A DNA stretch of 64,000 bases, taken from NCBI GenBank assembly GCA_001244265.2, contig CDLV01000012.1, positions 682,001-746,000 of the forward strand. Reading direction: 5' to 3'. This document shows positions 1 through 15,038 of this stretch, in pieces; position 1 is the first letter of the stretch; the number at the start of each line of letters is the position of its first letter. The notes under the pieces were generated by a model, which was not told where the DNA came from, searched no databases, and saw only the letters and a program-made list of their open reading frames with translations. Source of the stretch: Microbotryum violaceum (taxonomy: Eukaryota). The translations under genes and the position numbers were made by a program.

Positions 1-384
1 GGTACCCTTTGCGACGCAACTGCGGTTATGGGACGGGCTCTTGCTCGAAGGAGCGGATTTCTTGATCATCGTGGCGGTGGCGATAATTTGGGCTTTCAGG
101 GGTGAGTGTATATATGCATTGTTGTTAGACGCTATGTTCAACGGAGAATATAAAGCTGAGCTTCACCTCCTTCTCTCCTAGACTCATTCACCTTGCCCTC
201 GGCTTCGTTCGAATCGATCCTATCGACGCTCTCGTCCTACTTTTTCGTCGAGTCGGACGACGGGTTGCTGCGATGGATCCGCAAGACGTTGCGATTGAAG
301 GGCGTGAGACAAAAGATGTGCGACTGGAGGGTCGAGTGGCAAGGTTTTGTCGAAAATGGGTCCGCGGATCGGAGGGTGACGTGA
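1..384 (+). CDS. TBC-domain (Rab-GAP) protein, 3' end only
   Basis: Exon VPFATQLRLWDGLLLEGADFLIIVAVAIIWAFR fits the TBC C-terminal 'lRlWD.ll.eG' helix; GT-AG intron 102-181; last exon ends TGA at 384. Confidence 0.7.
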
Positions 385-577
385 GGTGTGGGGCTCGGAG
401 GCGCACGTCGCGTCGCAAGGAGCCGTCCAGCTCGGTAACCTCTGAACGATGGATATGCTTTCGCAATTTTGTGAATACGAATCTGTTGGAATTTACATAC
501 CTAACGGTGTTCTCACGCCTCCCAATGAACTCTTGCTCTCCGCCCCGAGGTCGACCTGGGATGCCTACCAAATGGGG

Positions 578-876
578 CAGTGCGGACCCTAGAAAGGACG
601 GGCTGTCCGAATAGGACCGATAGGACCCTTCAGCCCAATGTGCGTCTCGAAAAACAGCGATTTTAGGCCGATATCTACATCGGGATAAGGTGTCTGAGGG
701 GTCGATTTGTACCTGTTTCGAGTCGTACACTGGAAGAGCTCGGAGAACATGATATGGAAATGCCCAAAAATCGCTCTCCAGCAGCCAGAAATATGAAAAA
801 TCGCTCCGACGACCCGACACTATATATCGTCGCGTCGAATTTGACAGCCGGCCGCTCGGACCAGCCCGACCGCTCG
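578..876. repeat. Left arm of degenerate inverted repeat / transposon-subterminal-like sequence
   Basis: 631-653 matches the reverse complement of 11613-11635 at 21/23; CGATTTGTAC...GAG[TA]CG motif at 703 is shared with 11559 and 11602. Confidence 0.45.
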
Positions 877-1049
877 TTGGCTATTCTGGTGGTGCTAATT
901 GGAAAACAAAAGAAAGTTTGGCTGAACTGAGAATTGACCTCAGTTCCACTCTATTAATCAGAGTTGCTCTGACCGCTGAGCTACTCAACCAGTGGGAATA
1001 GATGAATATGACGGTGCACCCGAGTCATACCGGCGGTGGTTCTACCACA

Positions 1050-4000
1050 CATTGGGTACTAAATACGGCGCGGACTTGCGACGACCCGCGCTCGGATCCT
1101 CTCTTTCTGCGCCGACTCTCGGAATCGCAGATCGACTTACTCCAGCGACCAATCACCGAGGACGAGGTCGTGGCCGCGATCGGGACGACGCACCCGGGGC
1201 GATTGCCGGGGCCGTTGGGCGTGCCCTACGAACTCTACCGGACCGCACCCAAGGCGTGGGCCAAGGTGCTGACCAAGGCCTACAACGCAATGATAGAGCG
1301 AGGCTCACTCTCTCCCAAGCAGGGCCAAGGACTCGTGCGCCTCATCTTCAAGCGACACAAGGAGAATGCTGATCGCGCCGAACGTTCGTCGTACCGGCCG
1401 ATCACCCTGCGCGAGTGCGATTACAAGATCTTTACCAAGGTCTATGTCGCCCGTTTGAACCAGATTCTACCGGATCTCCTCCCGCCGCAGCAGCACGGAT
1501 TCGTCAAGGACCGCCGATCGGCTGACGCTGCACTACACCTTCGTCTCCTGATCGAGGAAGTTGGCGCGCGCAGGACCGAGTTCCCCGCGGCCGCACTCTT
1601 ATCTCTTGACCAATCGTCCGCCTACGACCTCGTCGAGCATGACTGGATCTTTGCCATCTTTGACGCTCTGGGCGCTCCTGCCACCTTTCTTCGCGTGCTG
1701 AGGATGCTCTACTCGGGTGACTCGACCTCGGCCCGCTACATCATCAATGGGTTCTTGACGGCGCCGGTACGACTGACGTGTGGGCTCGGCCAAGGGGACC
1801 CGGCGTCGTCGTCGGTCTGGGACATCGTGTTTCAGCCGTTTCTGGATGCTCTACACCGTCGAAACATCGCGCTGAATCTCTCCGTACCTGCACTTCATCC
1901 GTACCCACAGAGCCGCGCCATTACATCGCTTGCTTTTGCCGATGACGTTGTCGTCGCCGTCGCGGGCTTGGGGTCACTCAACTTGCTCGATGACCTGGCG
2001 CTCGACTGGAGGCATGCAACGAATGGCCGGCTCAACACGGACAAGACGGTCGTCCTACCGATCGGACGCCGCTGGGACCCGGGGCAACGCCCGCTCGTCG
2101 TCAAGGCCGCAGGCGAGTCGCTCGAGTGGATCGGCCTCCCCTTCGACCCGAGCGGCGACACCGAACTCGCCTACGCGGATCTCATCGAACGCCTCGAGGC
2201 GACGCTGGAAGGGGTTCAGCATCGCTGGCTCACACACCACACCCGTGCCTTTTACGTCAATCGGTACGCCATCCCCAAGATCCTGCACTTCCTTGCAGCC
2301 GACATCCCGCCGCCCGAAGTCGTCAAGAAGCTCGATGACATGCTCGTCGATTTCGTCCGTGGGGGCAAGGGCAGGACCAGCTACGGCAGAGATATCGTGT
2401 TCACAGCCAAGCTCAAGGGGGGACTCGGGGTGATCAGGATGCAGGACGTCGTGGACGCGGTTGCGGCACGGATCTGGGACGTTCTTCTCGGCGGTTCGGG
2501 CGCGATCTGGCAAGGACTTGCGCGCGTGGCACTCCAGCGAGCTCAGTCCGACCTCGACCTGGCCACCGATCTCTGGCCACATCCATCCACTCCCATCCCC
2601 AGCGACCTCCATCCCGATGGCGAGCAGCATTGGGGTTCCGAAACAGCACGACGCGCAGGTCAACCCGAGGACCTTGACCACCGCGAACCTGCTCGCGCTT
2701 CTCACCTTGCTCGGCAGCCTCCACACCCCCATCAGAGGGAGACAGACCATCGACGCGGTTCATATACCTGACTACCTTCGTCTCCAGGGCTACCGAAGGT
2801 GGCGGATCTCTACCGGCGCGAGTTGTATGCGGGTGGGGGTTTCACCTTTGGACGCCGCCGGCGGATGTGCTCGGCGACAACAGCGAGTACGATCGACGCG
2901 GGCTCCCGCAGCGACTGGCAATCGCGGCCTGGTACCGGTTTACTGTCGATCGACACAAGAACACGCCCTTGGCGGTGGCGGTGGCGGCAGGACGGCTCAA
3001 CGTGCCTCCCCGGATCGGCACCAGCGCACCGCTCGAGGCGATTCTCCCCAAGCCCGTGGCCCGCTTCGCAATGGAGCAGCGCCTTCCGGACCCGGTGCTT
3101 CCACAGCAGGCGAGCCAGTACAAGCTGCTGAACATGGCTCGACCGTACACCATCCGTCGCATCCGCCGGGTCCTGAACGCGAAGGCCTTTACCAACACGC
3201 TCGGGCTCAAGGGACCACCGCAGCCGGACGACCTCAGGAGCTTTTGGGAAGGCGGTCAACTCGAAGGCACTGACGGCGAGGGAGAGGGAAGTTTGGTTCA
3301 AGCTGATTCTCCGCTTCACCCCGACGCGCAAGCTGCAACACCAACAGAATCACGACACTTCTCCCGCGTGCCTCGTCTGCGAAGCGCCGGTGGACGACAC
3401 CGACCACTACTTTTTCGGCTACGTTGACTCGCGGAATGTCTGGATCGCGGCAAGGGGCGTGCTCTGCGACGCACTCGGGTGCGACACGATTGAGGACGCC
3501 CAGTACACGACACTGCAACGGCTCTTTGGCCTCCCCAAGCTCAAGGCCAAGCTCAGCGAACAGGAAGGGGCGGGCTGGACGATCGAGATCTTCACGGGGA
3601 TGGTTTTGGAGATGATCAGCAGTGGGAGATGGAGGATGCAGAAGCACGGGACGAGGATGGAAAGCGTGGAGAGGAGGAGGGTGGTACTGGAGGAGAGGAT
3701 GAAGTTGAGGGCGGGAGGAGCAAGGGGCGGGCGAGGGCAGTAGAGGCTGGGTTCGATTTCCCCCCCACCACACCCCACACACACACACCATCACGCTTCA
3801 TCTTCCAACAAAAAGCTGTATACTAAATATCTTGCTTTCATCTTTCATCTATTACAGGTCTGCCTTCGTTGCTCATGGACCGGCTCGCGATTTGAGATTG
3901 ACTCGACGGTGACTCGCGCTCTTTGGCTTCGGGGTTCTGAGTCAAGGGAGGGATCAGCAGACACAGGCAGAAAGTCGGATTTGAGGGGCCAGGGACTGCT

Positions 4001-4412
4001 GAGGTGGAGGTTTTGAGGGGCCTCCACCGCGTCTTGTTGTGACCGAGCATAGACTTGGGACTTCGCGGGTCAGGGTAGCTGCGCAGTCGCTCTCTTGTCT
4101 TTGTCTCGACCGAGTTGGGAAGTGACGGCGGGCTGGGTCTCTTGTCGTTAGTCTATTATTTTGTTACTCTTTCTCTTTCTCTCTCTCTCTTCTTCTCTTT
4201 CTCATCTTCTCTCTCATTCGTCTCCTGGGGGGAGCAACCGCTTGGCTGGGGCACTTGAATCCCAAGTATCGGATTGGTGGACACCGGCCCGTTTCTAGCA
4301 TCTTGCGGGCGGTTTGTGTTATCATCGTCGACTTCCATCTAGTTTTTCCGTAGGCCAATCAGGGGGAACAGGAATTGGAGGCAATATGATGAACAAGTTC
4401 TACAAAAAAAAA
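1050..4412 (+). mobile_element. 5'-truncated non-LTR retrotransposon (L1/Tx1-like LINE), copy A, frameshifted
   Basis: RT motifs [42 protein letters not shown]-terminal CLVC...DHYFF zinc knuckle near 3370-3420; ORF ends about 3743; CT-rich 3' UTR ending in A9 at 4404-4412; start approximate. Confidence 0.9.
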
Positions 4413-4414
4413 CC

Positions 4415-4494
4415 CCATCTAGTTTTTCCGTAGGCCAATCAGGGGGAACAGGAATTGGGGGCAATATGATGAACAAGTTCTACAAAAAAAAAAA
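4415..4494 (+). mobile_element. Ultra-short second copy of the LINE-A 3' terminus (69 bp + A11)
   Basis: 4415-4483 repeats 4335-4403 with one substitution (GGAG vs GGGG) and has its own poly(A). Confidence 0.85.
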
Positions 4495-7400
4495 GGAACA
4501 AACCGGGGGCCAATCTGAAATCACTGGGGGCATATCGACCGATCACACTGCGCGAGACAGCCTACAAGGTCCTCAGCAAGGTCTTGGTGGCGCGACTCAA
4601 TGGGGTGCTCGGCGAGCTTTTGCCGCCGGCGCAACACGGGTTCATGCCATCAAGACGTTCAGCGGACGCGGGAAGTCATCTCACTCTCCTTCTCGAAAAA
4701 CTCCGATCACTCGGTACTGATGTTTTCCCAGAGGGCGCCCTCTTGTCCTTGGATCAGCAGAGCGCGTACGATCGGGTCGATCACGCATGGATCTTCGACG
4801 TCTTCGAGGCCTTTGGCTTTGGTGAGCGTTTCATTTCCCTGCTGCGCGCTCTGTACGATCCCGAGACTCTGGGGGTGCGCTACCTCATCAATGGGTTCCC
4901 CACGGAGTTGGTGCGGTTGCTGTGTGGTCTCGGTCAGGGGGATCCCCTCTCGTGCCCGGTTTGGAACATCACGTTCCAGCCCTTCCTCGACGCCCTCGTT
5001 CGGCGCAGGATCGCGCTCGACCTGCAGAAGGTGTGGCCAGGGGGCCGCGTGCGCAGCTTACGCATCTGGCGTTTGCCGACGATGCTGTGGTGGTGGTGGA
5101 GTCACCGGCGGCATTGTCGAAGCTGCAAACGCTGTCGCAGACGTGGTACGAGGCAACCAACGGGAAGAGCAACACGGACAAGACGCTGGTGCTACCACTC
5201 GGACCGAACTGGCTTCGGGACGAGACTGCGCAGGCGCTGCCAACGGTGCAGGAGGGGGAGAGCTTCAAGTGGTGCGGCTATGCCTTCTTTCGCCACGGTG
5301 ACTCGAAACTGTTTTGGACCCATGTTCTTGACAGGATCAAGGCCAAGACCCGCGCCGCTGGAGACCGGACACTTTCGCCGAGTGGGAAGGTCTTCTATGC
5401 CAACGCTCACATCATCTCGACGGTCCTCCACGTGCTGTCCTTCGACATACCGCTTCAATGGTTCATTAAGGCGGCGGAGACAGCACTTACGGATTTTGTC
5501 TGGGGAGGAGCAGGGCGAAATACCGTCGCTCGCGATTTCGTGTTCCAGGCTCGGGATGGCTTGGGCTTGATTTCGATCGGCGACATCGTTCATTCGGTGG
5601 CGCTTCGATTTTGGGATGCTGTGGCGGGCTCGAACGAGGCGATCTGGGCGCCCCTAGCTCGCGAGAGCTGGAGGTCCCTCGTCGCTGCGACCCGCGATTT
5701 CAGTCCGTGGGGGTTCTTCAGCAGCACGGCTCGGGTCGAGAAGCTGTATCGCGACTCGACGCGCTGGGGGGCAGTCGTTGCAGCGGCCAGGGTCACCTTA
5801 CCAACCATCAAGTCCGAACTCCTTACGCTCCCCGAATTGCTCTCGCTTCCGCCTCGCCTCCCTTCACTCTATGCTGAAGGTGCCAAGCACGCATATGACG
5901 ATGCGGACGCAGTGGCGAAGTTTGCGCAGATCGCGGACCTGTACTGGAGGGACGAAGGGAAGGGCTGGGCTCTGGTTGGTCATCGACGCGGGTTCTGGCA
6001 GCACTATAAGGAACCCGCCCTACAGCACGAGCACGTGTGGTCGCGCGTGGGTCAGTTGCTCAAGGCGAAAGCCTTGCTGCCCAAGACCGCGTTGCGACCT
6101 GCTCGGATACCTCTCAAGGAGGCCCCCGTCCTCGGTGCTTCAACTTCTTTGGGCTCACCCGACCGTTCACTATTCGCAAGCTTCGTCGGCTTGTGAACGT
6201 GGTTCGGTTCCCAGGGAGGGAGGATCGTGTCAAGCGTTTCCGTGATGGGACTTCTCAGAGCCATAGGAAGCGCTTCTGGAGATGGCTTCATGACCGGTTT
6301 GCGTCTGCTGTGGAGCAGGACACCCACTGGCGGCTCATGTACGACGTGACGCCGACGCGCAAGAGGCAGCATACTCAGGGTCATGCCTCTTCGCCGACGT
6401 GTCTGTTCTGCGGCAACGATGCAGCGGTCATCAAGACGGTGTCGCACTACTTCTTCGAGTGCGCGTACTCGACCAGCTTCTGGGGTGGGGTGCTTCGCAT
6501 TCTGTTCGACAAGCTGGGCATCGAGGATACCGACGTCGATCCGTCGACGTTCACTCCGGAGCAGCTGACTATGGGGCTCCCCCTTTTGCGGGGTCGTGGG
6601 AGAACGACCTCGAGATGGATGTGGGTTCGGCTGGCCTGCGCGATCGGCTTCCAGCGGCTGCACCTGCTCCGCTGGCGCGTTCATCAGCGGTTCGAGCTGG
6701 ACAAGGTCGTGGCCCCTCCCTCGCTCCCAGTGCACTCAGAGCGTTCGAGCGAGATTTTCTCTCTCGAGCGGGTTTTGTGCCTGGGGCTCGAGATTGGGAG
6801 GTGTGATGACCAAGTTAAGTCCTTCCTTCCCATTTTCCTCCCTTCTTTTTCGGAGGTCGACTCCTCTTTTAGAAGCTGACTGTCTTGGAACTTGTTGCGC
6901 AGTGGAAGGCTGCGCACCTCTCCCTCTCTCTCTCTACTTTGCGCAGTAGCGGTTTTTTGTTCTTGGATGGATCGGCAAGCCAGGTCGATTGTCTTTGCGT
7001 TGGAGGCTTTGTGAAGTTTTTCCCTCTCCTTTCCCCCCTTTTTCCCTTCCCTTCCTCTTCTCGTTCCTGTTGCTCGGTTGTTGACTACGCTTCAGCCACT
7101 TCTCCTTTTACTCCTAAGCCGTGTGTTGGGTTCCGTTGAATGGTTCGTTCGTTCGCGTTGGTCAAGATCTACGGCATGGCTCGGGAAGGAAGGTCGCTCG
7201 TTTCTGGTCAATATCCTCGCGTCAAGGCGAGGCTCGTTTCGTTGTACTGGATCGCTTTTCTCTCGGCCCCGACGGCTCAACAGCCAGCACTCGAGATTTA
7301 GCCAAGGGAGGACATCAGGCGCTGTCAGGGTGACGAGTAGCTGGGGCTTGGCTGCGGCCTGTTAGTCCCTGGGGACCTCTACCTCCGGCTTCGACCCCCT

Positions 7401-7767
7401 CCCTTGGCCCCTCGGGTGTGTTCCCCTTCTCTCTGTCTTAGTATTCCTGGTTCTCCGTATCCCCAGTTGTAACTTTCTGTATACTCTCCCCCTTCTTTCT
7501 CTAGGCGCTCTTGCCTGGTTTTCGAGTATCTTTGCTCCCGCTCTTGGGACGTGAAGCGGCAGCAGTACTCACCGCCCGTTGGAGTCCGCGTTAGGTGCTC
7601 GGCGGGTTTTGATCTGCGCAGCGCTCTTTGCGCGCAGGGGTTTGACTTTCGCCCAACTGCTTGCCGTCGTTGCTTTATAACCTCCTTTAGCTCTTTTTGT
7701 AGCGGTCCCAGCCAACCCGAAGGATTGCAATTTATGAGCCCCAGTAAAAAAAAAAAAAAAAAAAAAA
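4495..7767 (+). mobile_element. 5'-truncated L1/Tx1-like LINE, copy B, frameshifted
   Basis: Begins inside RT ([25 protein letters not shown]), [28 protein letters not shown]...SHYFFEC zinc knuckle near 6400-6465; long 3' UTR ending in A22 at 7746-7767. Confidence 0.92.
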
Positions 7768-7817
7768 GGGAGCCATGGCGGGCGGACTGGTGCACGGTCA
7801 CATTGACTTCTACTGTG

Positions 7818-8091
7818 CTGTGAATGTGAGGGCTGCATATATCCAGTGGCTTTGACTTTACATAAGTCTACCCCCTTTTTCAAACATTGGTTTCTCGCAG
7901 ATAATCGAATATGTGAAATAAATCGGGACTCTCTCTGTCTTCTCTCTCTTCTCGGTTGTGCCTATCTTCACAACTATATAGGGTTGATGGTTGGGGCTCA
8001 AACTTGTGGAGTCCCATTTTGTCGTTCTGTGAATGTAGTGCTGCATAGATCCAGTGGCTCTGACTTTGCACAAGTCTAAACCCCTGTTCAA
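7818..8091 (+). repeat. Imperfect ~65-bp direct repeat pair in an AT-richer spacer
   Basis: 7818-7883 and 8027-8091 share CTGTGAATGT..GCTGCATA.ATCCAGTGGCT.TGACTTT.CA.AAGTCTA..CCC. Confidence 0.8.
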
Positions 8092-8399
8092 GAAGGATCA
8101 ATAGCCGGAGGCCGCATACCACCAATCCTCGAAAATCGTAACTCTTGTCGAATAATGCGGGATCTCGAGCACGTCGTCTAAGGACAGGTGAGTTTGTGAC
8201 TCTGGAGGGACTGTTTTAGATGACATGTTAACAAGGGCACACACGGAAGTGCACAGAACGTAGGATGGTCGCGACCTGGCACAAGGTGAGGATGGTCAGG
8301 GGCTATCAGGGGCCGCTAATGGCACTTGGCCCATTTAAACCCCAGCGCCTTTCTGTATTCTTGCGGATGGCGTCTTGGTGCGCTTGAAGCGCATTTTTC

Positions 8400-11300
8400 T
8401 TTCATTACATTCGGCTCGCGCGAACTAATGTTTGATCCCGAGTCGCCTCCAAACACTCTTCGTGCCTCTTTCTCTTTCCCGGACCGAGTCACCGACGCCA
8501 CCTTTTATGTGGGTGATTCAAAAGTCCGGGTTGTATCAATATACGCGCCTTCCTCCGACAAGCCAGACAAAAAACGCTTCCTCTCACCCCTCAGCACCGC
8601 CCTCCGACAAGTTGTACGTGACGAACCCTCGCCGCCTGCGCTCCTAGTCGGGGGGACTGGAATTGTGTTGAGTCCCAGCCCCTCGATTCGGAGAACCAAA
8701 ACGGAACGAATTATGGGGGTCAGGAGATGCGCGACCTTGCCACGGCCAACAATCTTTTCGACGCCTATCGGCTCCATCATCCCAAAGGACGAGCCACGAC
8801 GAATCGCTCAGCGCCCGGCACGTGCCGTCGCCTTGACCGCATCTATGTCTCGCCTGATTGGGTCGACCTCTTCCATGATCACAAAATTTGGGCTCCTGTC
8901 CTCAAATCGACGCACTCAATGGTTGTGGCACGGCTCCAAGTGCCGGGCGCAATCGACATCGGTCCGGGCAAATTCAAGCTGGGTTTGCACGTGATCGAGA
9001 GCGACGCGACCTGCGAGTACCTCACCTCCATTGTCCGCACCCTTTACAACAAAGCCCTCCTCCAGACGCCCAACGATCCACCAGCAGCTTGGACGTCCAC
9101 CAAACACCGCCTGCTGCCCGAGCTGCAGGCTCTGGCCCGGACGTTCGCTCGGTTCCGTCGTGGCGGGTCGGAGCAAGAGAGGGCTGACCACTCGCGCTAC
9201 GGCGCGGCCCTGCGGTCCCGCCTCGACCCATCTCTGGCGGGTCCCTCTTCCATCTTCATCCGCCTGCCCAAAGTGCGAGCATCCGACCTGATCCCTTCGC
9301 TCACGGTCAACGATGTTGTTCATTCCGACCCTGATTCGATGCTTGGAGCGGCCAGCGACTACTTCGAGCGGGTCTATGAGGACCGCCCCATCGATGACGC
9401 GGCCCTGAAGGCGATCATCGACGGCCTCGCTTCAACTCGCCTCTCCCCGCGGACTCACTCAAGCTCGAGGAAGCGTACCCGTTGGAGGAGATGACAAAGG
9501 CTCAAGAGGCGTTCCTCTGCGCCGTTGGCCTCGGCCCCAAAGCCCGCCAATGGTACCGAGCGACCTACACCAACCAATCTGCCTCGATCTTCCTCAACGG
9601 TTGGCTCTCTGCCACTTTCGACATCCTGTCGGGCGTTCGGCAAGGTGATCCTTTGGCTCCGTCTCTCTTCGTCCTGGCGATCGAAGGTTTTGCCTGTCAG
9701 ATTCGATTGAGAGTCAAGGGCATCGATATTGCGGGCCTCCAAAACGTTCGCGAACTCCTTTTTGCCGACGACGCTTGCTGCGCACTCCACAACCTCTCGG
9801 ACCTCGACCACCTCAATCGGGCGATCGAGCTTTACGAACGGGCAAGTGCCAGCAAGCTCAGCAACGTCAAATCTTTCCTCTACCCCCTTGGAGCTTTTCG
9901 GGATCGGTCGATCACCCCAGATCTCGGGACCTGGCGTCTCAGCGATTCGCAGTTTCGCTACCTTAGTATTCAGGTCGGGGTGGAGATCGCTGAGGATGCG
10001 GGCTGGGAAGATGTCAAGGCCTTGACCATCGCTCGGATACGCTCGATTCCGATGTACGATCTCCCATATGCAGCCAAGTGTTCGATCATCAACATCTACT
10101 GCTACACAAAGATCTTGTACTACAGCCGATTCCTTCCCGCCCCAAGAGCGTTGTCAAGGAGATCGAGGAGGCCGCCATGCTCGCCATTCACGGTCGAGCT
10201 TCGGATGGTACTCAGCGACGTCCGAAGGTCTCCCGGTCGCGCCTCTGCACCCCTCTTGATCACGGCGGCTTCGGTTTGATTGATCTGCCTCGGCGTCTAG
10301 CAATCGATCACGCGAAGTGGGTCTTCCAGCTCCGGGCCCCGGACGGCTGCTTCACACGCCACCTCTTCGACATCCGCATCCGCCTCCAGGCACCAAACGA
10401 ACCAACCCCTTTCACCTTGTCCAGACCGGCCCCCAACCAGCATCGTTGCCCTTGGATTTGGATCTGGTGGGCTTACTTTTGCCATCCTCCCCAAAGTGGG
10501 ACCATGCGGTGAGAAAAACGACAAAACTTCTTCCTGCTCGTTGGGTCCGATACTTCGAAGCCTGGGCGTTGGTGACCACGCTCAACCCCCGGAACTCTCC
10601 AAGAGCCAGAACCTCGAGCAATGGGCGACGCACGTACTCTACTTCCCAGCGGGCCACGGAATACAACTCTCGGTAAACCCGACGCTTTTTCGAGGGCCCG
10701 ATGGCGAGGTGATGACCCCGTCTTCGTTTGTGAACGCGTCCAAACGCCACCAAGTCTTCATCTTCCCCCTTATCTTCCCCAAGGGACACCAGAAGGTATT
10801 CGATCTGCCTGAGCAACGCTGGAACGCTTGGTGGAAGGCTTTGCGCAAGGTTCGCCGGGTTCACTCGGACGCCGAGGATACCGGCCACCTTCTCTCCCTG
10901 GGGTCCCTCCATCCGGGAAGCCAAGTCGCCTCCCCAACCAGCCCACATCCCAACAATTGATCTACCTCCTGTGTGATGTGCCTCTCGGAAGCACCCGAGT
11001 GCCTGGTTCACCTCGCGGTCGGCTGCCCATTTGCCCGGCGCCTCTGGTCTGCTCTGTGCCCGACCCCCCACCCAGTCTTTGTGGACTTTGTATGCCCGGT
11101 CGTGTCTCGCTCGGAACGTCGACTTGTCGAACTACGAGTCCTCTTCTTTCACTCGATCTGGAAGCTCTGTCGCCGTCGTCGATTCTCGTCGGATCTTTTG
11201 GAACCGATCACCGAAACGGAGTTCGAGGGGCTTCGAGCCTCTATCCAGGAGTCCAAGGGTCGCCTAGTGTCTCTGTAAGACACCAAAGGGGGTTTTAGTG

Positions 11301-11450
11301 GGTATGGTTGATCCTGGTTCAGGGTCAATGAGTCCTACACTACTGGCTTCTGCCAGTGTGCGTAACAGCATTCCCTCCGACTTTTCCGAAGATTTCTAGG
11401 TATTAATATAATTATGCTGTTAATGAAGTCTATCAAATAAATAATAAAAA
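8400..11450 (+). mobile_element. L1/Tx1-like LINE, copy C: APE endonuclease, internally deleted RT and zinc knuckle
   Basis: APE motifs SIYAP, GG(D)WN, LFDAYR, RRLDRIY, STH; RT N-terminal subdomains missing at about 9495; GVRQGDP, LFADD; CVMC...VHLAVGC; stop 11278; A-rich tail about 11436-11450. Confidence 0.9.
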
Positions 11451-11454
11451 TCAT

Positions 11455-11702
11455 ACGCGCTCGGCCATCGGCCGCGCACGGGACGGCCGGCCCCGGCCGG
11501 TGCGAGGTCCAGGTGCATCAGTTTGTACCACATCCTGGACGTACATGATCTGATTTTTCGATTTGTACCTCTTTTGAGTCGCAGTTTGGGTTCGGAGGGT
11601 CCGATTTGTACATTTTCGAGACGCACCTGGGGCTGCGCTTTCCCGGGTCCGGGTCCTGGTCCGATTGTCCGATCGTGTCTCGTACGCGGGCGTTCTGCAC
11701 CG
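11455..11702. repeat. Right arm of degenerate inverted repeat flanking the LINE block
   Basis: Reverse complement reads ...AATCGGACCAGGACCC...CAGCCCCAGGTGCGTCTCGAAAA versus left AATAGGACCGATAGGACCC...CAGCCCAATGTGCGTCTCGAAAA; GC-rich inner segment on both arms. Confidence 0.45.
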
Positions 11703-12042
11703 GTGTCACGGAACTGCTTCACACCGCATTTCACCTCCCTCGCCTCATTCCGACTCGAAGGAGAGACGGTCCTTTGACTCTACTCCTGACTTCGACTGCC
11801 TGAGTCTTGTGGGTCCACCAGTTGCGACTCGGTGTCTCTGCTTCTCGCGATCAGACAGGTCTCACCGCCTCAGAAGACGGAGCGCTCGAGTAACGTTCGA
11901 TCGGCGGTGATCAACTGGCACGCCTCATCACCACCGTACACCTCTCGACCCCAGAAGGCAGCGAATACGTCGAGGCGTACAGCCGGTCTTTTCGATTGAA
12001 CAGCAAGGACCCATAGCTATCGCCCTCGTCGACTCGGATCGG

Positions 12043-14863
12043 ATGTCGACAAGTACCTCGTCTCTCGCGGCGACCGCGACCGCGACCGCGGCGGCTTCTA
12101 CGACTAAACCGGCCAGTTACAAGGTAGGCACACGCGAGCAAAGAGTCTAGTGGAAGGGTCATTGTGCAATTTTCGCTCGGAATGGCCGATGGCTGGCCTG
12201 GGAGGAAGTTTCTTGGCGTTACATAGCGCGTCACGACTCTCGAGCATCACCGAGCCGAACGTGGGGGGGGGGGGGGGGATATTGAAGCAACAGTGACAAC
12301 AGCCGACCGGACAGGGGCTGGCGACCGAGACCGAGGCCGAGGCCGCACCTCTTCAGTGCACAGGGAATACTGATAAGGCTACATTGTCCCGGCTCAGATC
12401 ATCGGTATTTGCTTGGCTGTCGGCAGTGGATTGTTCATCGGAACCAGTCAGTATTGCCCACTGCCTCCCCGCCGCATGCTCCAATGTCTGAGGCAGTTTC
12501 TCGACAACTGACCGTTGGTGGTTTTTCGTACCTAGGCTTTGTCGTCAAGAAAAAGGTATGACCGACCACAGGAACTCGGGATGTCGAGGCGCGCCTCGGG
12601 ACTCACGCTTCATTTGCCATGCTCGGACGTGCAGGGTCTTCTGGCTTCGCAACAAAAGTCGGGCAATGTGGCCGGAGAGGGGCACGCCTACCTCAAGAGT
12701 TGGCTATGGTGGACGGGGATGATACTCAGTCAGTGCGAACGGTTCTATCGCAGCCGTGCGGACGCCCTCTGACGGTCCTCCTTCCTCCGCGAGTTGGCAG
12801 TGATTCTCGGCGAAGTGCTCAACTTTGTCGCCTACGCCTTCACCGAAGCCGTGCTCGTAACCCCACTCGGCGCACTTTCCGTCGTCATCTGTGCGATCCT
12901 GTCGTCCATCTTCCTCAAGGAAAAGCTCACCTTCTTTGGCAAGATCGGCTGCGTTTTGGCGATCCTCGGCGCGACCATCGTCGCTCTCAACGGACCCAAG
13001 GATTCCTCGGCGACGACGATTCCGGTCTTTCAAAAACTGTTCCTTGCCCCCGGGTTCTTGGTGTTCGGTAGTCTCGTTATCGTGGGTCCCTACTCAATGT
13101 TTCGCCGCAATCGCCTGAGTAGTTGTTGATACCTGCGCGCCGCCCGTGCACAGCTCGTCTCCTTGGGCCTCATCTTCTTCGTCGCCCCCAAATACGGCAA
13201 GACGCACATGCTCGTCTACATCACTATTTGCTCACTCATCGGCGGTCTTTCTGTCGCGTGCACATCGGGGCTCGGCGCTTCTATCTTGACCTCGATCCGG
13301 GGCGACAACCAGTTCAAGCACTGGTTCATCTACTTCCTCCTTGGCTTTGTCATCATCACGCTCTTGACCGAAATCAACTATCTCAACGTATGCACGAGTA
13401 CTGATCACGCACCTGGCTGCACTGGAACGAAAGCTAATCCAACGCTTTTGCGCTTTGGGTCTTGCAGAAAGCTCTCGAGCTCTACAATACGGCGTCAGTT
13501 CAGACGGCAGTTCGGTTCTGAGTCTGGACCTGCTGATACTGACCTCTCATCCGGTTGCTTCGACAGGATGGTCACGCCTACTTACTACGTCTTCTTTACG
13601 GGTTGCACCTTGATCACGGCCTCGATTCTCAACCAGGGCTTTGAGGCCTCGCCGGTTGATATCGTGACTGTCGTCATGGGATTCCTCGTCATTTGCTGCG
13701 GTGCGTTCAAATTACAAATGCTCTGATCTTACGACCTGTCCCCTGAACATGCTTTGGTGCGCATCCGCAGGTATCATCTTGCTGCAACTGTCCAAGGTTG
13801 ACCCCGTAGAGGTCGCGGAAAAGCTCGATCGCCGATCGACAATCCTCTTCACCGGTGGTCGGAGTCGCGCCAACACGATGCAAGAAAAGGTGCTTGAAAT
13901 GGAGGAGCCGGGGATGGATGCCTTGCGAGGCTCATTCGGAGCGTTCGGTTCGATCCACCGCGCCGTGAGTGCGAGGAGGTCGATGCGACGCGAGCCGGGC
14001 TTTGATCCGAACGAAGTGAGGCGACGACACGGCGCGCCGGGGGCGATGGGAAGCGGTCCACAACAGTCGGTGCCGATGCGGTCTTACCAATTGTACGATG
14101 CACCCATGCCTTCGGACGCGTTGGACAAGATCTCACTGCACAGTGGCGGTCAGCCTTCGCCGAGCGCGCCCTTTGCTCAGACGGAGCGCGATCGTTCCCC
14201 TTCCATCACGTTCTCGCCGGCCGACAACGTGCACCGATGTGAGTTGCCTCGAGGATGACCTCCTGTAGAAAGGCACAGTGCTGATCCTTGATGAGACCTG
14301 AACTCGCAGACGCTCGCGACCCTCGATCGAAGCAAGGCGCGTCTCACGACGAAGTGACCCTGCAACCGCATGCACACGAGCACCACGGCCGCGTGGACGC
14401 TCCCTCTTCAGCCGACATTGGCACTTCGTCTTTCCTTGGTGCCAGTACTCCGCGCACATCCTCCCCTTCTTCGATTGATCGAATCCGACATGGTTCCTAT
14501 CCTCTCCCGAGTTCTGCCAGCGTCAGCCCGTACCCACCCCGCCTCGAACCCCCACAACTCGACGCGTTGGAACAGCTCATCTCCCCCGCTTCAAAGAATC
14601 GTTTCGGAGTCTCGATGCCCTTCGGTCACCACGACTCGTCTTCCTCTAAGGCTCACGAGAACAATCCGAATCGCTCGAGGGCCGAGACTTTGACGTCGCA
14701 CCGCTCGTTCGAAGCACCCCATGGACCTAAAGATCTCGACCAGGCCGAGTCCAAGAGCTTGGTCAACCATGCTCGAACGGACTCGAAAGCCGATAGCGAA
14801 AGTGATTGCGAAGACGGGTTCGGCTCGAGCATCGAACGTATCGATACGCGGGATCAATTGTAG
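12043..14863 (+). CDS. NIPA-family magnesium transporter (multi-exon)
   Basis: MSTSTSSLAA...SYK|IIGICLAVGSGLFIGTS, GHAYLKSWLWWTGM, GEVLNFVAYAFTEAVLVTPLGALSV, APKYGKTHMLVYITICSLIGGLSV, VTPTYYV. Confidence 0.92.
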
Positions 14864-15038
14864 GAGACGGTCTGGCTATGCTATTTGCACTCCAAAGCAG
14901 GCGGAGACGACCATATTCCGGGTTTCCTTTTTAGATGTACTGTAGCGACTAGGGCTGTTAGAGCAAGTTGTATTTCGTGTCGCCATTATGTAAGAATGAC
15001 GAAATTGGACTTTTACTTTTCAAGTCGAGGTTTTATGA

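Follow-up and report, generated by a model that had tools for sequence, protein, structure and literature searches.

Between the 3' end of a TBC/RabGAP gene (hereafter TBC) and a NIPA-type magnesium transporter gene (NIPA), the 64-kb stretch of Microbotryum DNA analysed here (the window) contains a gap of ~11.7 kb (385-12043, from TBC stop to NIPA start) that lacks genes and is filled with retroelements in a single orientation. Is such a block a chromosomal structure, a preferred landing site for several retroelement families, or an ordinary accumulation of transposable elements (TEs)? An earlier sequence-only reading of the window had proposed a LINE-built regional centromere or heterochromatin block, or else a strong insertion hotspot shared by several LINE families. 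Our analysis indicates that the block is very probably an ordinary TE nest, located in the spacer between two anciently adjacent Microbotryum genes, rather than a chromosomal organelle.

The composition announced by that reading, namely three LINE copies and one mini-copy, all on the + strand between TBC and NIPA, was recovered from reverse transcriptase (RT) ORFs, poly(A) tails, and a duplication (Table 1). Three + strand ORFs, 1002-2771 (E = 1.5e-21, 77.5 bits), 4584-5570 (E = 3.7e-08, 33.8 bits), and 9482-10279 (E = 1.3e-07, 31.9 bits), match the RT domain RVT_1 with scores that exceed the Pfam cut-off, and + strand poly(A) runs are located at 4404-4412, 4484-4494, and 7746-7767. The mini-copy (4415-4492) is 98.7% identical to 4335-4412, with a period of 80, and each of the two ends in poly(A). 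The three LINEs are indeed different, as protein identity is 42-58% between copies 1 and 2 and about 20% between copies 3 and 1, and DNA-level similarity between them amounts to a single 140-nt match (71%). LINE material spans 1057-11455, within a repetitive block of about 660-11588 whose limits are contig break points of the public sequencing runs X5 and X10; in the strains of these two runs the block is seen at its outer edges only, short-read contigs stopping at 659 and resuming at 11634 (X5) or 11589 (X10). The remaining 52 kb are free of LINEs, as had been claimed: tblastn searches with the ORFs of the block and 38 LINE proteins gave matches only within 1059-10159. The tight gene packing stated for the rest of the window was checked roughly: stop-free frames of 150 aa or more cover 62% of 12044-64000, the largest gap being 3.0 kb, and only two of ten long ORFs gave a Pfam match.

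Table 1. Features of the block and its borders (window coordinates)
Feature	Position	Strand	Description
TBC/RabGAP gene, 3' end	1-384	+	Last two exons (one to about 100, the other 181-381) separated by an intron; stop at 382-384
Spacer 3' of TBC	385-659		Single-copy; X5 and X10 contigs (depth 5.7 and 25.9, respectively) span 1-659 and end there
Repeat R, left part	660-893		Older low-copy repeat; elsewhere continues directly into 7818 onwards; short repeated motif
Multi-copy tRNA-like element, 3' part	894-1056	-	Resumes at 7771-7817
tRNA-like sequence	919-990	-	Rfam RF00005, 42.3 bits (gathering 29), E = 1.7e-07; TTA at anticodon position
LINE1	1057-4412	+	5'-truncated, frameshifted non-LTR retrotransposon: RT, zf-RVT, 3' UTR, A9 tail
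Mini-copy	4413-4494	+	CC, then last 78 nt of LINE1, then A11 tail
LINE2	4495-7767	+	Second family; copy 5'-truncated and frameshifted, with RT, zf-RVT, and A22 tail
GGG (also at 1054-1056), then tRNA-like element, 5' part	7768-7817	-	From sequence and contigs
Repeat R, right part	7818-8430		Internal 69-nt direct repeat, 7815-7883 / 8024-8091, 84%
LINE3	8431-11455	+	Third family, distant from the others; copy 5'-truncated and frameshifted, with RT, A-rich tail, weak endonuclease C-terminus, weak zf-RVT
Repeat remnant	11456-11588		Short motif common to 693-727; X10 single-copy contig begins at 11589
Single-copy region 5' of NIPA	11589-12043		X10 contig 11589-15000; X5 contig 11634-12204
NIPA-type magnesium transporter gene	12044-14860	+	Several exons; Pfam Mg_trans_NIPA PF05653, E = 1.4e-26

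All three copies are non-LTR (LINE) retrotransposons: their RTs are of non-LTR type, their 3' ends are A-rich or poly(A), and they are 5'-truncated to varying extents. Among solved relatives, human L1 ORF2p is closest to the RTs of LINE1 and LINE3, followed by R2. The zf-RVT domain of LINE2 lies at 6037-6879 on the + strand. The apurinic-type endonuclease domain (Exo_endo_phos), which precedes the RT in APE-type LINEs, is missing from LINE1 and LINE2 because both are 5'-truncated; LINE3 retains a trace of it (E = 0.012, below cut-off), together with a faint zf-RVT match (E = 0.17), and P0009, a relative of the LINE family, scores 30.8 bits for Exo_endo_phos.

All three copies are dead, being 5'-truncated and frameshifted. 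LINE1 matches only aa 137-1015 of protein P0001, spread over three frames, and LINE2 only aa 413-1004 of P0012 from M. saponariae, with 95-96% identity over aa 413-912 and merely 39% between 6714-7337 and aa 909-1004. Other copies extend 5' of 1066 for LINE1 (run contigs), of 4496 for LINE2, and of 8431 for LINE3 (with poly(A) after 11441). Relative to collapsed repeat contigs, the window carries at least four single-base indels in LINE1 (2612, 2631, 2792, and 3246), at least two in LINE2 (6123 and 6725), and at least five in LINE3 (8649, 9444, 10139, 10488, and 10585). The families themselves are abundant and young. In public runs, they reach a k-mer depth about 23-39 times the flank value; in run X5, which equals the window at every one of 3,951 compared flank bases, LINE contig depth is 132-227 versus 5.8 for the flanks, and the contigs aligned to the window differ from it by 0.4-1.8%. 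Among 38 database relatives of LINE1, 25 are Microbotryum proteins, distributed on four contigs in M. silenes-dioicae and five in M. intermedium. The annotations of M. silenes-dioicae, M. intermedium, and M. saponariae include close LINE relatives, at 88-98% identity, as unnamed proteins. LINEs of the same element class are found in another species of the genus, M. lychnidis-dioicae, with 392 copies making up 0.93% of a 26.1-Mb assembly (Perlin 2015, PMC4469406, Table 2).

The flanking genes are identified as follows. TBC proteins with PF00566 match window positions 2-178, and P0159 matches the TBC exons with 100% identity over 33 aa and 98.5% over 67 aa, the match ending at 381. Comparison with named orthologues places NIPA exons within 12395-14860, the ATG at 12044 being read from the sequence, and P0040 of M. 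silenes-dioicae is 100% identical to the last 183 aa of NIPA (14312-14860). The window belongs to an anther-smut fungus of the genus Microbotryum that is closely related to M. silenes-dioicae. The locus tags of TBC and NIPA follow directly on each other in five of the seven comparable outgroup yeasts (Microbotryomycetes), which means that no annotated gene lies between them and says nothing on gap length in these outgroups. Judging from this gene order, the two genes are ancestral neighbours.

Synteny of TBC and NIPA in relatives had been named as a check on the centromere hypothesis, and the consecutive tags in these outgroups count against it, even if a syntenic centromere could likewise have conserved genes on its flanks. 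A regional centromere or a piece of one, made of truncated retroelements in the style of Cryptococcus deuterogattii, would also be gene-free and composed of such elements, and 11.7 kb is within the short basidiomycete range (mean of about 14 kb in C. deuterogattii and predicted size of about 12 kb in U. maydis; PMC5866544). The block thus shares with the Cryptococcus centromeres described by Yadav et al. 2018 (PMC5866544) ORF-free truncated retroelements, conserved flanking genes, and a size near the C. deuterogattii mean. However, the latter are made of the LTR elements Tcn1-6, which are more than 95% centromere-restricted (PMC5866544), whereas the block, known from sequence alone, consists of non-LTR elements whose families have tens of copies, with annotated relatives on four to five contigs per species; the LINE copy number of M. 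lychnidis-dioicae is likewise well above its chromosome number (Perlin 2015, PMC4469406). In Microbotryum, centromeres have been predicted from centromere-specific tandem repeats (Badouin 2015) and gene-poor regions, and assemblies often break there (PMC5962589, PMC5967549, bioRxiv 2021.10.29.466223); the criterion given in this literature is a gene density below 0.25 in 1-kb steps, over the largest such stretch on the contig. Our block resembles these predicted centromeres in being gene-poor and TE-bearing, but it has no array of the published marker type, is gene-free over 11.7 kb only, was assembled through, and is immediately adjoined on both sides by single-copy genes, in ORF-dense DNA. 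TRF (minimum score 40) found only three copies of a 24-nt unit in the 64-kb window and, within the block, only the 80-nt x2 duplication, and it is on this TRF result that the lack of a centromeric repeat is judged. A search for telomere repeats found none.

Base composition is that of genic DNA: GC content is 0.578 in the block versus 0.571 in the rest of the window, the CpG observed/expected ratio 1.04 versus 1.13, and the normalised RIP-like index -0.30 versus -0.36, both below 0. These values, along with the absence of a tandem array and the outgroup gene order, lead us to consider a centromere at this locus highly improbable. They also bear on the heterochromatin block of the sequence-only reading, which finds neither CpG depletion nor RIP-like excess to sustain it. 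A related proposal is that of a heterochromatin island, or single-strand source of small RNAs, in which co-oriented fragments read through from the upstream gene feed silencing. All fragments do lie on the strand of both flanking genes, and their source families are abundant and look active; yet the shared orientation is not significant (by simple arithmetic, p = 0.25 for three independent insertions), and read-through from TBC would yield sense, not antisense, RNA, which counts against a small-RNA source. We give this proposal next to no credence.

How, then, did the pile form? LINE-1-type insertions are often 5'-truncated, or "dead on arrival", and new LINE or SINE copies enter the poly(A) tails of older ones. 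The block resembles this pattern in its poly(A) tails, 5' truncation, A-rich duplication around LINE2, and head-to-tail stacking in one orientation, as well as in its APE-type relatives and RTs nearest to L1 ORF2p, a likeness that does not imply any clade label (L1, Tx1, or Tad1). It departs from it in that its LINEs belong to fungal families with a C-terminal zf-RVT. The flanking duplications also differ. LINE2 has A(n)GG on both flanks (AAAAAAGG at 4489 and again at 7762), whereas LINE1 has a duplication of at most 3 bp (GGG), and no target-site duplication is recognisable for LINE3, the longest word common to both of its flanks being 5 nt.

A single insertion site, 1056|7771, holds LINE1, the mini-copy, and LINE2, and GGG stands on either side of it (1054-1056 and 7768-7770). 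An X10 contig passes from 1056 straight into the 15 letters found at window 7771-7785, and this joint represents the empty site. Repeat R is also found uninterrupted, with joints 893->7818, 891->7818, 885->7818, and 804->7821 seen in X5 and X10 contigs whose depth is close to single-copy. The A(n)GG on both sides of LINE2 fits an insertion into the LINE1 poly(A) tail, and the shared insertion point is best explained by re-targeting of the A-rich tail. From this observed anatomy, we infer the following order of events. A single-copy spacer of about 730 bp (385-659 plus 11589-12043) would already have carried repeat R and a ~210-bp multi-copy tRNA-like element. Three non-LTR families would then have inserted via target-primed reverse transcription, each copy being 5'-truncated and dead on arrival, with frameshifts coming later: LINE1 66 bp upstream of the tRNA-like sequence, an 80-nt mini-copy of the LINE1 3' end at the LINE1 A-tail, LINE2 at or beside that same tail, and LINE3 660 bp further on, within repeat R. 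Placement at the tail of LINE1 would give the mini-copy and LINE2 the same direction as LINE1. In the alternative order, LINE2 came first and LINE1 afterwards at the same GGG, which would need two families to use identical nucleotides independently. As for the clustering itself, at least three LINE copies in 11.7 kb has a Poisson p of about 7e-4, or 1-2 such bins per genome under uniform scatter, a figure that uses 392 LINE copies per 26.1 Mb and assumes an M. lychnidis-dioicae-like LINE content in the species of the window. Most likely, the block has no function for the cell.

The tRNA-like element has a depth at position 938 of about 15 (X5) to 80 (X10) times that of the flanks, and the three insertions fall at one nucleotide-level site just upstream of it. 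The tRNA-like sequence was missed by whole-window scans and by ARAGORN at default settings, which calls a "tRNA-Stop" at 919-990 only at a threshold giving 65 calls in the window. Position 33 is A instead of U and the anticodon reads TTA; the sequence is probably not a working tRNA. T-runs (900-918) come after it on its own strand. At T-loop position 54 (window 938, + strand), the G of the window copy is replaced by T in every aligned contig of the four runs, so that the T-loop of the family consensus starts canonically. For Microbotryum, the genus that carries this multi-copy element, neither SINEs nor tRNA-bearing TRIMs are on record: 0 SINEs are listed by Perlin 2015 (PMC4469406), and Helenus, a tRNA-bearing TRIM, is not reported there by Kojima 2024 (PMC10886601). 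Its copy number and suppressor-type anticodon recall Helenus pseudo-tRNAs (PMC10886601), but a search around the tRNA-like piece found no LTR pair, PBS, or PPT, unlike in Helenus.

The insertion hotspot of the sequence-only reading can be assessed against these data. Only local re-use of one site, by LINE1, the mini-copy, and LINE2, is supported; A-tail re-targeting best explains the shared point, and a landing pad common to several families is not required. Such a landing pad would imply that several LINE families recognise the unannotated, multi-copy Pol III-type tRNA-like element or its bound factors and insert at a set distance upstream (~66 bp), head-to-head, A-tail re-use not being the cause. 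Dictyostelium TRE5 elements are LINEs targeted to tRNA genes, with recurrent insertion at a fixed distance upstream of many of them. The block resembles them, at one locus only, in that a retroelement faces a Pol III-type tRNA-like sequence head-to-head from its upstream side. Several observations agree with targeting: a single point, 66 bp upstream of the tRNA-like 5' end, received LINE1, the mini-copy, and LINE2; the LINE 5' end faces that end; T-runs trail the tRNA-like sequence; and the T-loop start of the family consensus is canonical. Independent use of the same GGG by two families, if LINE2 came first, would agree with it too. However, the case concerns a single locus, LINE3 lies 660 bp off with no neighbouring tRNA-like sequence (none in Rfam scans of 7700-8500 and 11250-12060), the tRNA-like sequence is rejected by ARAGORN at default settings, and A-tail insertion is simpler, the mini-copy showing tail re-use at this very locus. 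We thus consider homing to the tRNA-like element unlikely; if true, it would represent tRNA-gene-style LINE targeting, TRE5-like, in a basidiomycete.

As an ordinary TE nest, the block would show how dead LINE copies can stack up, all facing the same way, within a compact fungal genome. It is at the same time a warning that a stretch which is gene-free, retroelement-filled, and co-oriented is insufficient for calling a centromere.

The gap between the TBC/RabGAP and NIPA magnesium-transporter genes holds three LINEs and a mini-copy on the + strand, as the sequence-only reading had stated, and all RT-bearing frames confirm this orientation; only the limits needed refinement (see table). From the TBC stop codon and the NIPA start codon, the latter read directly in the sequence at 12044, the gap spans 385-12043 (11,659 bp). 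Over 183 aa, the last NIPA exon (14312-14860) shows 100% identity to P0040 of M. silenes-dioicae, and about 16 G stand in a row at 12265-12280, either in the first intron of this gene or in its 5' region. As Pfam matched only two of ten long ORFs beyond the LINE-filled block (an alkaline phosphatase and a weak hemerythrin), gene packing there is known roughly, not as a proper annotation.

Features of the TBC-NIPA interval, in window coordinates
Feature	Position	Strand	Detail
TBC/RabGAP gene, 3' end	2-100 + 181-381		Match to last 100 residues of TBC proteins
TBC/RabGAP stop codon	382-384		
tRNA-like sequence	919-990	-	Rfam tRNA 42.3 bits, E 1.7e-07; core of ~210-bp piece 894-1056 + 7771-7817
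LINE1	1057-4412	+	Match to aa 137-1015 of P0001 (relative, 1015 aa), spread over three frames; A9 end
Mini-copy	4413-4494	+	Directly after LINE1; CC, last 78 nt of LINE1 repeated (98.7% identity), A11
LINE2	4495-7767	+	95-96% identity to P0012 (M. saponariae) aa 413-912; A22 end
LINE3	8431-11455	+	RVT_1 31.9 bits; A-rich tail
NIPA magnesium-transporter gene	12395-14860		Exons matched by named orthologues; Pfam E 1.4e-26
LINE1 single-base indels vs repeat contigs	2612, 2631, 2792, 3246		
LINE2 single-base indels vs repeat contigs	6123, 6725		
LINE3 single-base indels vs repeat contigs	8649, 9444, 10139, 10488, 10585		

The three LINEs show nearly no DNA similarity to one another, and protein identity is 42-58% between LINE1 and LINE2 and about 20% between LINE3 and LINE1; on these sequence comparisons, they are three separate families. 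Family relatives carry Exo_endo_phos, RVT_1 and zf-RVT domains, LINE3 itself gives weak matches to an endonuclease C-terminus (E 0.012) and to zf-RVT (E 0.17), and the nearest solved structure to both RTs tested is human LINE-1 ORF2p. The final stretch of LINE2 shares only 39% identity with aa 909-1004 of P0012. The window comes from a Microbotryum (anther-smut fungus), and the longest RT ORF has 38 database relatives, 25 of them Microbotryum proteins (best 98% identity, M. silenes-dioicae). In the named Microbotryum species, the locus tags of all 25 LINE1 relatives lie away from that of the species' own NIPA gene, which hints weakly that these species lack the block or that it is unannotated in them. 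When the 64-kb window was searched by tblastn with the block ORFs and 38 LINE proteins, matches were confined to 1059-10159, in agreement with the earlier statement that no LINE was found in the other 52 kb. In addition, the alignment of P0012 to LINE2, at 95-96% identity, leaps from 5569 to 6268 with one residue between; the M. saponariae gene model thus seems to splice out about 700 nt of LINE (5570-6267) as an 'intron', which would be an artefact of annotation in a gene call derived from a TE.

Part of window 1-10000 is contained in 20 of 24 listed public sequencing runs (8 studies), four of which (X5, X10, X15, and X17, all short-read contigs) were compared with the window. Single-copy contigs end at 659 in X5 and X10 and restart at 11634 and 11589, respectively, so that 660-11588 is repetitive in both organisms; among the 15 joints listed of 29, none bridges the whole block (~659 to ~11589). 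Depth reaches 132-227 in LINE contigs of X5 (flanks, 5.8) and 485-1181 in those of X10 (flanks, 27), which points roughly to tens of copies of each family, contig depth not being a copy number. No RNA run was among those listed; X15 and X17 are only presumed to be RNA, and their LINE cover is therefore uninformative on expression. Contigs diverge from the window by 0.4-1.8%, and other LINE copies extend 5' past 1066, 4496, and 8431, which indicates that all three window LINEs are 5'-truncated. As X5 is identical to the window, without gaps, across the 3,951 flank bases compared, the LINE indels in the table (at least four, two, and five in LINE1, LINE2, and LINE3) are probably true frameshifts rather than assembly errors.

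Run contigs also document the nesting. One X10 contig runs up to 1056 and continues with 15 letters unique in the window to 7771-7785. Taken as one unit, LINE1, the mini-copy, and LINE2 have this junction as their empty site, which GGG borders on both sides (1054-1056 and 7768-7770). Of the insertion hotspot previously suggested, local re-use of one site is thereby upheld, and nothing beyond that. LINE2 is flanked on both sides by AAAAAAGG (at 4489 and 7762); no clear target-site duplication was found at LINE3. Other joints, in contigs at single-copy depth, pass from 893 (variants 891, 885, and 804) to 7818, showing that 660-893 and the sequence from 7818 onwards form one older low-copy repeat (R), into which 894-1056 + 7771-7817 is a further insertion. 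R contains a 69-nt direct repeat (7815-7883 and 8024-8091, 84% identity, 209 bp apart), and 8111-8270 is skipped by single-copy-depth contigs in three runs; R thus differs from copy to copy. An LTR pair or TRIM was rejected for R, which has no long direct repeats, only motifs of 23-53 nt. Near the outer edges of the block, the motif CGATTTGTAC..TTTYGAG.CG occurs at 631-667, 693-727, 11549-11584, and 11598-11635 (one inverted, three direct), and may represent terminal or subterminal repeats of R or a common regulatory motif.

The block had also been proposed to be a regional centromere or heterochromatin, which our data do not support. In the cited parts of four studies (PMC5962589, PMC5967549, bioRxiv 2021.10.29.466223, bioRxiv 2022.08.03.502670), Microbotryum centromeres are predicted via centromere-specific tandem repeats, in regions that are gene-poor, repeat-rich, and prone to assembly breaks. 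Neither a tandem array (TRF) nor a telomere repeat was found in the window, and composition is close to that of the rest of the window: GC is 0.578 in the block vs 0.571, CpG observed/expected 1.04 vs 1.13, and the RIP-like index (computed with a formula from the literature) -0.30 vs -0.36, with 10.9-kb windows of the rest ranging from -0.41 to -0.32. In the proposed check of synteny, TBC and NIPA locus tags are consecutive in five of the seven outgroup genomes listing both (R. nylandii, R. ruineniae, Rhodotorula pacifica, R. dairenensis, and S. blumeae), and not in R. poonsookiae and S. salmonicolor. The two genes are thus an old pair, which does not imply a short gap, and the conserved adjacency speaks against a centromere, although conserved flanking genes are also a feature of syntenic centromeres. 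Block size alone is compatible with short basidiomycete centromeres (~14 kb on average in C. deuterogattii and a predicted ~12 kb in U. maydis, in the cited part of PMC5866544), but overall we regard a centromere here as very improbable. A subtelomere was likewise rejected, TTAGGG x3 being absent from the window with two mismatches allowed.

The ~210-bp insertion in R is missing from other copies of R, and k-mer depth of this tRNA-like element exceeds that of the flanks ~15x (X5) to 80x (X10). Its tRNA-like core is followed just 3', on its own strand, by T-runs. Given a TTA anticodon, an A at position 33, and rejection by ARAGORN at default settings, it is unlikely to function as a tRNA. Whole-window scans with Rfam and ARAGORN returned no tRNA; only an Rfam scan of 380-1200 detected it, and Rfam found no tRNA-like sequence at 7700-8500 or 11250-12060. 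That a 42-bit match was missed in 64 kb under both gathering and E-value thresholds and detected in 821 nt reflects Rfam speed filters, which conceal such atypical matches in long inputs. As the cited part of Perlin 2015 (PMC4469406) gives 0 SINEs for M. lychnidis-dioicae, and that of Kojima 2024 (PMC10886601) no tRNA-bearing TRIM in Microbotryum, the piece may represent a Pol III-type mobile element not yet annotated.

The single-copy spacer between TBC and NIPA is only ~730 bp, which is normal given that coding sequences lie 1,181 bp apart on average in M. lychnidis-dioicae (from the cited part of Perlin 2015, PMC4469406). R and the tRNA-like element would have been present first. LINE1 would then have entered via target-primed reverse transcription, and its A-tail would have drawn in the mini-copy and LINE2, producing a head-to-tail stack in a single orientation, while LINE3 would be an independent insertion 660 bp away. 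We infer the order from LINE1 to LINE2; the reverse may also apply, with both elements inserting at the same GGG. A single orientation would arise from three independent events with p = 0.25, and the 392 LINE copies in 26.1 Mb given for M. lychnidis-dioicae in the same source would, if scattered uniformly, already place three or more copies in one or two bins of 11.7 kb per genome. The block is an ordinary TE nest of an already-known kind, in which only the multi-copy tRNA-like element and the common insertion site 66 bp upstream of the tRNA-like sequence merit a further look.
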